Notes under the pieces: model-generated
The model's database searches: none
Told to the model about the DNA's origin: nothing
The model's input: the letters and a program-made list of their open reading frames with translations, nothing else
From: Escherichia coli
GTDB lineage: Bacteria; Pseudomonadota; Gammaproteobacteria; Enterobacterales; Enterobacteriaceae
DNA: 64,000 nt
Assembly: GCF_009931435.1 (NCBI RefSeq)
Contig: NZ_CP043414.1
Strand: one strand, 5' to 3'
Shown here: piece after piece, positions 52,003 to 54,150 of the stretch
Position numbering within the stretch: the first letter of the stretch is position 1
How the letters are laid out: each line of letters starts with the position of its first letter
Program-made: the position numbers and the translations under genes

Positions 52003-52543
52003 CTTCCGCTTGAATACGATTCAGTAAAACGCGGTATTTTTTCCATGCGGTAAGTAACAATGTTTCTTCCTGGCTCGCCATGCCTAAAACAACAGCATCC
52101 TGCAATGTGGCAATGGCAGTATGGGCCTGTTTAAGCAGTCTTATCTTTTCCAATTCTGCCTCACGGGTTAATGCAACTCGCATAGACTCAGCATCATCCT
52201 CCCATTTACTGCCATTCCATTTTTGCCATGCGTTTTCAGGCTCCAGAGTAGTTGTTCCAGCTGGATAATCCCCTGGTGCTGTTATCACGAACCTTCTAGC
52301 GTCTTTCGTATCAAATACAATTTCGCCACGGTGATCTTTAATAGCAATCCATTTCTGTTTTTCTGTATTAAAAATTGCCACGAATCCGTCTTTTGTTAAT
52401 GGAGGTTTAATTGTGGTGCAATTGGCTGGTAGTCCTGTGTGAGCGGGAATAAAAGCGTTATCACTACCAATAAACTCATTCGTCTCAGAATGAAGTTTAT
52501 AAACAGTAACTGTTTGATCGATATCACTCATTTTAAATATCAT
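51956..52543 (-). CDS. Tail fibre assembly protein (Tfa/Mu U-like)
   Basis: [43 protein letters not shown]... and C-terminal [33 protein letters not shown] closely resemble K-12 cryptic-prophage Tfa proteins. Confidence 0.8.
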   Translation of the reverse strand: [195 protein letters not shown]

Positions 52544-54150
52544 TAAGCGAGTCTCACGATATAGTTTAATGCAATGTTTTTAACAGTGTTTTCTGAAGTA
52601 CCCGCAGCATTAACCGTAATGGTGTGTCCATGCGAACCAATCGCAACAGAGTGCGTATGAGCACCAATACCGACAGTATGTTTATGCTCCCCAGCACTTG
52701 CTGCAGTACCTGATACCGAGTGGGTGTGTGCGCCCGCAGAATTCGTTGCACCTAAGTGAGTTTGAGCAGAGTTCGACGAAGCTACTCTACCGGAGCTAAC
52801 GTTAGCATTATCTCCCTGAGATATCGGATGTGTATGTGCACCTGCTGAAGCAGCTGTTCCGCTAACACTATGGGTATGAGCACCAGTGTTATTCGTAGAT
52901 TTAGTTCCATAATCAAACGATGATGTGGTTTTTGTCCCTAAATCGGTATTTGAGGCACTGGCGCTATGGGTATGTGACTTAATATTATCCTGTTCATAAG
53001 ATAATACGGCACGTCCGCTGTTAGGCTTACCTTTAATCGTCTGCCCGCGCATATCAGGAATAACACCCAATGGATACGCAGCAGCCAATAATGGATATAC
53101 TGCCTTATCAAAAGACTGCCCCTGCATAATTGCCCAGCCAGGAGGTGGAATATCTGCTGGCCATGGAAGTGGAACACCAACCGGCAGAACATCACTACGA
53201 CTTAAAACGGCCAGTTCACCCAGCTCCAGGCTTTTTCTTGCTTTCACCTTGTCGCTAACATCAGCAAGGTTTGCATCCTTACGCAAAAAATCGCTGCTGG
53301 CCTGCTGTTCTCCCAGGCTACCCTTTGGCCGTAAATCCGTGATGTTGCCATCCGCATCAATGCTGGCCACAGCAAACACATAATGCTGAACCCCGTTCTG
53401 AACATAATCAGCAAGATTTGCTGCCACCGTGATTTTGCTCTGCACATTCCAGACACTGGTCAGTGTCCCTGTCCAGCACACATCCAGCCAGACTTTTACC
53501 GGCTTTGTCGTTACCGTAATATTCTGATTCGCAGCCAGTGACGCACGAAGTCCAGCCACATACCCCGTGCCTTTCGTGACAAAAAACTGATTGCCGGTTT
53601 TGGCTACCAGATACCCGTTACCAAAAAACGCCGCCGCGCCATAAATATCCATATTTTCCAGGCGCTGGCGTTCATCCATTCCGGCCAGACGTGCAGTAAA
53701 ATCAATCTGCCATGTTTCAGCGGGTGTATTAATCCCGGTTTCCGTTTGTGCGCCATTGTACTCCATCAGAAACGAGCGGGTCAGCACGTTCCCCTGTTGA
53801 CCTTCTTTTGTTTTCAGTTTCTGCTGTGATGGTGCATGGACAATCATTGCCAGCGTACCGCTGGCCTTATTGAGCAGACCGATCCAGTTAAAACTGAAAT
53901 CACCCACATCTGCGCCCAGCACTACGGAATAGACCACACCGTTTTCATCCACCACACCGGTGCGGGTAACAGACTGCCGGTGAACAATCTGTGCAGCCGG
54001 TGGTAATGTTTCATTGCGGTCAACAGGTGTATCCGGGTTTAAATCCGGCACACTGGCAAAAACAAATTCATCCAGTAGTACCGGTTCACCCGTTGCGCCC
54101 TGCTGCGCTTTCCAGTTTTCAAACGCCAATGTGATGGCTGTCTGTGACAT
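52543..54150 (-). CDS. Tail fibre protein (gpH / side-tail-fibre family) with His-rich receptor-binding tip
   Basis: 535-aa; C-terminus ...[23 protein letters not shown]...[63 protein letters not shown] matches the conserved Stf/Mu-S type C-terminal domain. Confidence 0.8.

Follow-up and report, generated by a model that had tools for sequence, protein, structure and literature searches.

A predicted receptor-binding tail fibre with a T4 gp37/lambda Stf-type tip and a Tfa chaperone in an HP1-type, P2-like prophage of Escherichia coli

A family of receptor-binding proteins based on those of T4 and lambda, with two types of chaperone, Tfa-like and gp38-like, was catalogued in 2022 and includes PhiNP ORF6 and the P2-like phage SEN5 (Magaziner and Salmond 2022; PMC9659904). 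Across unrelated enteric phages, its members have a distal gp37/Stf-like tip of ~215 aa and an assembly protein of 184-207 aa encoded directly downstream. In T4 gp37, the collar comprises residues 811-881 and 1010-1026, the stem residues 882-931 and 960-1009, and the tip residues 932-959; residues of this tip are needed for binding to lipopolysaccharide (LPS) or OmpC, and the receptor contacts map to the tip subdomain (PMC6957217). Here, we describe a tail fibre gene and the tail fibre assembly gene tfa that follows it, located in a prophage within a 64,000-nt stretch of the E. coli contig NZ_CP043414.1 (assembly GCF_009931435.1), hereafter the window. The two genes have the architecture of the catalogued family, and the fibre belongs to its Tfa-type chaperone branch, the one that includes SEN5, as an uncharacterised allele.

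Several well-described loci resemble this one in part. StfR/TfaR of the K-12 Rac prophage and Stf (orf-401/orf-314)/Tfa (orf-194) of lambda have the same tip module and the same Tfa family, with tfa directly downstream; however, StfR and lambda Stf are accessory side fibres of siphoviruses and carry another N-terminal domain (StfR has 1120 aa), whereas here the module is borne by the sole baseplate fibre of a myovirus. In Mu (S/U and S'/U', with Gin) and e14 (StfP/TfaP and StfE/TfaE, with PinE), a Tfa-family chaperone likewise follows the fibre gene, but the Mu G and e14 P segments possess an invertase, 26-bp crossover sites and a second, inverted set of fibre end and chaperone, all three of which are missing from the locus studied here.

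We are highly confident that the gene specifies a tail fibre that serves an HP1-type, P2-like prophage in receptor binding and has a gp37/Stf-type tip and a Tfa chaperone, and that the host range of the prophage changes by cassette replacement without inversion. Two points weigh against this reading: homology is the basis for trimerisation, iron binding, virion incorporation and the receptor alike, and the window ends inside the prophage, the remaining ~15 kb of which was checked for an invertase in a single 99%-identical prophage of another strain. The receptor-binding module is already known, the phage type that bears it is classified and the gene is already annotated in RefSeq; the feature is real but ordinary.

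The fibre and its gp37-type tip

The fibre gene and the parts of its product are as follows, with residue numbers referring to the fibre.
52543..54150, minus strand: tail fibre gene, an intact open reading frame (ORF) of 535 aa plus stop, matching PF12571, PF07484 and PF03335 as well as the tail fibre families phrog_8239 and phrog_295.
53677..54144, minus strand: residues 3-158, the PF12571 'tail-collar fibre' domain (Pfam E=2.1e-31), presumed to be the baseplate-attachment end; 95-100% conserved in sibling prophages.
53191..53676, minus strand: residues 159-320, shaft and linker, constant in the phage lineage (sibling identity 90-100% up to codon ~320).
52978..53190, minus strand: residues 321-391, first part of the collar, corresponding to T4 gp37 D10 residues 811-881 and holding the left edge of the exchangeable cassette described below; PF07484 matches at 325-372, and the alignment with PDB 2XGF starts at 322.
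52828..52977, minus strand: residues 392-441, outgoing needle stem with histidine-x-histidine (HxH) motifs 1-3 (His 393/395, 425/427 and 439/441), in register with T4 His 883, 915 and 929 and 92% identical to StfR.
52747..52827, minus strand: residues 442-468, hypervariable distal tip subdomain corresponding to T4 residues 932-959 and predicted to be the receptor-contact surface; 5-24% identity to four references.
52597..52746, minus strand: residues 469-518, returning needle stem with HxH motifs 4-7 (His 475/477, 489/491, 498/500 and 507/509), in register with T4 His 966, 980, 989 and 998.
52546..52596, minus strand: residues 519-535 (17 residues), closing collar strand corresponding to T4 residues 1010-1026 (domain definition from PMC6957217); 82-88% identity in all four references.

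An earlier note on this DNA had described a His-rich fibre with five or more HxH units and a particular C-terminal tail, and both descriptions hold: the intact ORF encodes seven such motifs, located at residues 393, 425, 439, 475, 489, 498 and 507 and reading, from the N- to the C-terminus, SHTHS, AHTHS, AHTHP, AHTHS, EHKHT, AHTHS and SHGHT, and the C-terminal sequence (taken as the last 24 or 23 residues) is exactly the one that had been given. Fifteen of the 18 histidines of the protein fall within residues 393-509. When the protein sequence was shuffled, the mean number of HxH motifs was 0.56, and seven were reached in none of 20,000 shuffles. The region 48000-56000 of the window is 100% identical to the corresponding DNA of E. 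coli MFDS1016424, in which RefSeq annotates the fibre ORF as a 'phage tail protein' (WP_000083766.1) followed by a tail fibre assembly protein.

The closest characterised relative of the fibre tip is the tip of T4 gp37, a protein that the earlier note had not named. Chain A of PDB 2XGF, the receptor-binding tip of T4 gp37, matches fibre residues 322-535 end to end through its residues 29-242 (E=5.3e-81), and each of the seven HxH motifs lines up in register with an iron-coordinating motif of gp37 (His 883, 915, 929, 966, 980, 989 and 998). The two proteins share the collar domain, these seven motifs, an FDYGTK block, a further block of 19 residues and the C-terminal sequence NTVKNIAxNYIVRLA. 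They differ in several respects: the tip subdomains are only 14% identical, the N-terminal 320 residues of the fibre are unrelated to gp37, gp37 is a protein of 1026 aa that joins gp36 whereas the fibre attaches directly to a P2/HP1-type baseplate, and gp37 depends on gp38/gp57A whereas the fibre is paired with a Tfa-type chaperone. The phrog_8239 match spans fibre residues 1-291. Read at the level of its sequence, the fibre is shown to be a chimera, in which lineage-specific residues 1-320 (PF12571 attachment domain and shaft) are joined to a T4 gp37 D10-D11/lambda Stf-type tip at residues 321-535.

To divide the tip into subdomains, the published gp37 domains were laid on an alignment of the fibre with T4 gp37, lambda orf-314, K-12 StfR and the ESSI2_ev129 fibre. 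Identity to these four references is 67-88% in the collar (67-83% in its N-terminal part and 82-88% in its C-terminal part) and 58-92% in the stem; it falls to 5-24% in the tip subdomain, which lies between the third and fourth HxH motifs and shows indels. Of the eight non-histidine residues that are essential in T4, seven are replaced in the tip subdomain of the fibre. Each chain of gp37 extends to the tip and then returns, and because of this homology the receptor-contact surface is expected at residues 442-468 rather than at the conserved C-terminal tail. The earlier note had taken that conserved C-terminus as the receptor-binding end, an assignment that does not survive the comparison with gp37 (PMC6957217); the last 15 residues would instead represent the final strand of the collar, conserved for structural reasons. 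For annotation, the gain is the designation of the protein as a gp37/Stf-type receptor-binding fibre with Tfa, with receptor-determining residues predicted at 442-468 and not in the conserved C-terminus.

K-12 Rac StfR is 75% identical over fibre residues 323-535, with stems at 90-92% and the tip subdomain at 24%; lambda orf-314, the Stf C-terminus, is 56% identical to the tip module, with 5% in the tip subdomain; and for the K-12 StfE pseudogene the similarity is confined to the collar domain (39% over fibre residues 316-402). In blastp searches, Mu S and S' showed no significant similarity to the fibre (E=3.6-5.9 only), and the Mu fibre chain solved in 5YVQ did not match it. Mu S, which we considered as a relative of the tip, was ruled out by these two results (blastp E>3 and no match to the 5YVQ fibre chain). 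Thus, the proposal that one module is common to lambdoid side tail fibres and Mu S stands for the former (StfR 75%, lambda 56%) and fails for the latter. By tblastn, 669 phage records contain the tip, among them records of T4-like, lambdoid, P2-like and Felixounavirus phages, and 3158 of 5426 complete E. coli genomes have DNA-level matches to it.

The particular allele in the window is rare: at an identity of at least 99%, it occurs in 9 of the 5426 genomes, of which eight have the whole cassette and the ninth a partial match of 55%, and in the carriers that were inspected the allele belongs to this prophage type. At the DNA level, lambdoid gpJ-Lom-Stf-Tfa prophages come next, with 84% identity. 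We regard it as a serious but tentative possibility, suggested by a distal tip that is at most 24% identical to the gp37/Stf references and has lost seven of the eight non-histidine residues essential in T4, that this rare allele recognises a receptor not yet assigned to the family. If so, the tip would offer a module, ready-made and with a structural template, for redirecting fibres of the T4, lambda or P2 type to other receptors.

The solved and characterised relatives, at 64-75% identity, suggest how such a fibre would work. Three chains would trimerise, each leaving the collar, running along the needle, forming the distal tip at 442-468 and returning to end in the collar with its last 11 residues. 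The HxH motifs of the three chains would stack in the needle core, where each of the seven sets would hold one iron ion by means of six histidines. The hypervariable tip is predicted to contact an outer-membrane protein or an LPS-core receptor reversibly, and the N-terminus of the fibre would dock on the gpI/gpJ wedge of the baseplate.

Tfa and exchange of the host-range cassette

Downstream of the fibre, the following features bear on its assembly and exchange.
51956..52543, minus strand: tail fibre assembly protein Tfa, 195 aa (PF02413 E=4.9e-32, phrog_105 E=5e-76).
51971..52168, minus strand: Tfa residues 126-191, conserved C-terminal domain with proposed trimerisation helices, aligning to residues 112-174 of Mu U (PDB 5YVQ_B, E=1e-6); the role is taken from PMC9608196.
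52049..53190, minus strand: exchangeable host-range cassette, bounded by fibre codon ~321 and Tfa codon ~165; sibling identity is 95-100% outside and 31-88% inside.

The suggested pairing of the fibre with a Tfa-like chaperone is borne out by the PF02413 match, which scores 111.3 bits against a curated cut-off of 22.1, and by 48% identity to lambda Tfa; identity is 47% to TfaR, in both cases over the full length, and 35% to TfaE, and Mu U resembles only the last 65 residues (40%, E=2e-10). Among the alignments that the earlier note had proposed, StfR matched over the tip module and TfaE at 35% identity, StfE contributed its collar only and Mu U the C-terminal 65 residues of Tfa only, and Mu S gave nothing. 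The ATG of tfa and the TAA of the fibre gene overlap by one base, as TAATG, which shows that the two genes are translationally coupled.

The extent of the cassette was defined by comparing the tail genes of the window with those of ESSI2_ev129, MFDS1019527 and XYEH3934. The phages ESSI2_ev129, ev015, ev040 and ev239 and the sibling prophages at mntR are of the same phage type and have the same gene order and insertion locus, with 95-99% identity throughout the tail genes and also in fibre residues 1-320. However, the siblings carry other tip/Tfa alleles, with DNA identities of 31-88%, fibres of 524-525 aa and, in ev129, six HxH motifs. Identity reaches its minimum of 31-55% at fibre codons 421-500, which contain the tip, is 61-86% in Tfa and returns to 95-98% from about Tfa codon 165. 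The left edge of the cassette coincides with the start of the gp37-like module, and the right edge lies inside the conserved C-terminal domain of Tfa; the N-terminal ~165 aa of Tfa are thus within the swapped cassette, and it is over the final 65 aa that Tfa can be aligned to Mu U and lambda Tfa. Since identity is 95-99% on both sides and 31-88% within, host range changes by replacement of the cassette and not by inversion. The exchangeable host-range cassette that had been proposed for this locus is well supported by this profile, together with the 84% DNA match in a lambdoid prophage. Mosaic identity profiles further show that the ~1.1-kb cassette is replaced by homologous exchange, its conserved edges being common to lambdoid, T4-like and other P2-like phages.

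The principle of cassette exchange has been known since the 1980s-90s. The clean boundaries of the present cassette provide a natural example of host-range exchange between myo- and siphoviruses and practical junctions for fibre engineering.

The position of the right edge is consistent with a two-domain model of Tfa (PMC9608196), in which a variable N-domain grips the fibre and conserved C-terminal helices trimerise, because this edge falls in the conserved C-terminal domain. By analogy with the work on Mu Tfa, the protein of the window would act as a folding chaperone, its variable N-domain gripping the distal fibre and its C-terminal helices aligning the three chains. Tfa may also stay on the virion, and this raises the question of whether Tfa itself, as an adhesin bound at the fibre end, could supply specificity in the manner of gp38 in T2/S16-type phages, the HxH needle being a scaffold only. 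The variable ~165 N-terminal residues of Tfa are swapped with the fibre tip as one cassette, and Tfa of Mu and Ur-lambda has been reported in mature virions, where it aids host recognition (PMC9608196), both of which would fit this idea. Although it is the main alternative, we consider it unlikely. The T4 tip is 64-70% identical, and in T4 the receptor contacts lie in the gp37 tip itself (PMC6957217), with gp38 described as absent from the virion (PMC9608196); moreover, divergence within the cassette is greatest in the fibre tip (31-55% DNA identity, codons 421-500) and not in Tfa (61-86%), and covariation of the Tfa N-domain with the tip is equally expected of a pure chaperone that grips the tip. 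Our preferred assignment of specificity therefore remains the fibre tip, with Tfa as its chaperone.

Search for a switch of the fibre end

We found no DNA-inversion switch at fibre-tfa. A tblastn search of the whole window with Mu Gin and K-12 PinE and PinR detected no invertase (best E=0.27), and the 99%-identical sibling prophage of MFDS1016424 encodes only a tyrosine integrase and no serine invertase. A fuzzy scan for gixL/hixL allowing up to 6 mismatches found no site in either the window or the remaining part of the sibling prophage, and its positive controls were recovered in Mu (0 mismatches) and e14 (6 mismatches). Inverted repeats in 46000-58000 were limited to scattered, chance-level arms of 15-38 nt with 71-94% complementarity that do not meaningfully flank the fibre gene, and when the window was searched by tblastn with the fibre and Tfa, their own genes were returned and no second fibre C-terminus or tfa copy. 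These results agree with the expectation in the earlier note that neither an invertase nor a shufflon would be present: no repeat families beyond chance occur in 46000-58000, and the next genes encode baseplate proteins, not an Rci-type recombinase. As for a diversity-generating retroelement, a search for a template or direct repeat of the fibre 3' region gave only short chance matches, and Pfam/PHROG scans of the tail-operon genes revealed no reverse transcriptase, although no dedicated search of the whole window for that enzyme was made. The fibre contains two copies of a 14-residue unit, whose encoding DNA has diverged.

To our knowledge, HP1-type phages, lambda and T4 have no invertase switch, and because the switchless state is normal for these phages, a missing invertase is not an anomaly. 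It was nonetheless reasonable to ask about a switch, because in K-12 Rac the same tip type stands beside pinR: StfR-TfaR is followed directly by this serine recombinase gene, whereas the element in the window has no invertase. By the same scan, the stfR-tfaR-pinR locus of K-12 Rac contains no gix/hix-like site, and it looks like a stranded invertase without a recognisable invertible segment.

A fibre that is phase-variable through a cryptic or decayed inversion or shufflon-type switch, for example by means of an invertase encoded elsewhere and acting in trans, would draw on this adjacency of the same tip type and a Pin invertase in K-12 Rac, and Din invertases are able to act in trans. Against it, the window and the sibling prophage contain no crossover-like site at up to 6 mismatches under a scan that recovered Mu gix and e14, no inverted repeat pair rises above chance, no alternative fibre C-terminus or tfa copy is present, and all sibling prophages examined have a single orientation and gene order. 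We consider a switch of this kind extremely improbable, and replacement of the cassette remains the preferred account of host-range change.

The prophage, its neighbours and its cargo slot

By its DNA identity and gene order, the element is an HP1-type, P2-like temperate myovirus prophage of the genus Quadragintavirus (ESSI2-like, Peduoviridae), located beside mntR. Its DNA is 92-94% identical to that of Escherichia phages ESSI2_ev129, ev015, ev040 and ev239 (Peduoviridae; Quadragintavirus), with which it is collinear. The ESSI2_ev phages came from infant faecal viromes and were obtained as plaque-forming particles (PMC6969025). On the minus strand, the order tape measure, DUF2590, gpJ, gpI, fibre, tfa, orf33, ORF34 and baseplate protein is that of an HP1-type tail module, of which the following parts surround the fibre and tfa.
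54741..55925, minus strand: baseplate J/gp47-family wedge protein (PF04865 E=1.3e-29; RefSeq coding sequence).
54161..54748, minus strand: P2 gpI-like wedge protein of the baseplate, encoded directly upstream of the fibre gene (PF09684, phrog_1228; RefSeq coding sequence).
51241..51966, minus strand: conserved tail/baseplate-module gene of 241 aa in the HP1 orf33 position (phrog_1677; RefSeq coding sequence).
50724..51269, minus strand: HP1 ORF34-type baseplate complex protein, 181 aa (PF25759 E=2e-53).
49021..50724, minus strand: baseplate protein of 567 aa, the last gene of the tail operon (phrog_2258 E=3.5e-276), with weak matches, below the Pfam cut-off, to a gp5/VgrG-type OB domain (PF04717) and the gp5 C-terminal domain (PF22178).
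48993..49007, minus strand: terminator-like hairpin and T-run just after the last tail gene, from a consensus scan only.

The genes after tfa are normal HP1 orf33/34/35-type baseplate genes. They had been called structural-looking before, rightly so given the HP1 ORF34 baseplate protein (PF25759) and the 567-aa baseplate protein. None of the seven proteins scanned matched NCBIfam, and Rfam gave no match in 44000-64000.

A defective prophage remnant or a domesticated tailocin, in which the fibre would no longer serve infection, might be suspected, since the window holds only part of the element. Against this, the tail, lysis and head genes seen are all intact and collinear with the plaque-forming ESSI2_ev phages (PMC6969025), and the sibling prophage encodes a capsid, a portal, terminase, replication functions, a repressor and an integrase. 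We judge decay or domestication to be very unlikely and continue to treat the locus as part of a temperate phage. The sibling in question, the 99%-identical copy in MFDS1016424, is complete and reaches a tyrosine integrase next to mntS, with a repressor, a P2-type capsid, portal, terminase and replication genes.

Positions 1-22000 of the window are core chromosome. The chromosomal backbone (21514-40369) is 94-97% identical to that of MFDS1016424, and the prophage with its cargo (41962-63193) is 99.1% identical; among the 5426 genomes, the best match to the backbone is 98.7%. Divergent E. coli backgrounds therefore have this prophage in common, its rare fibre allele and rare cargo gene included, and this implies that it has spread horizontally in recent times. 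Between these regions, 40270-41948 (the ybiV/ybiU area) is 75% identical to its counterpart in MFDS1016424, with flanking core genes at 94-99%, and could represent either a segment that has been replaced or an allele that has diverged; an IS621-family pseudogene located in the ybiV/ybiU area of MFDS1016424 is absent from the window. MFDS1016424 also has, upstream, a second prophage with a large serine recombinase, and neither of these is in the window.

At the prophage end by mntR, a variable cargo slot extends over ~46430-48590 and contains or adjoins two ORFs.
48590..48844, minus strand: 84-aa ORF that lies just past the tail operon and has a separate terminator-like hairpin at 48562-48578.
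46825..48060, plus strand: uncharacterised cargo ORF of 411 aa, 36% GC, between mntR and the last prophage gene; no family match.

Searches of Pfam, PHROG, PADLOC and NCBIfam gave no match for either ORF. At the position of the 84-aa ORF, other siblings have a different ORF of 110 aa. In the siblings, the slot itself holds a 345-aa hypothetical protein (TK3887), DprA with a hypothetical protein and a DUF6680 protein (EC101), an AAA ATPase with serine O-acetyltransferase (MFDS1019527) or serine acetyltransferase alone (XYEH3934), and it resembles the moron/defence hotspots of P2-like phages. The 411-aa cargo gene was found in 1 of the 5426 complete E. coli genomes, and its protein family comprises 176 homologues (E<=0.001) in Gammaproteobacteria, cyanobacteria and Bacteroidota, in cargo regions at prophage ends and in integrative and conjugative elements. 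A putative HEPN-like motif of the 411-aa protein involves R341 and H346. This gene may be an undescribed single-gene defence candidate and, if so, would be of greater interest than the fibre.

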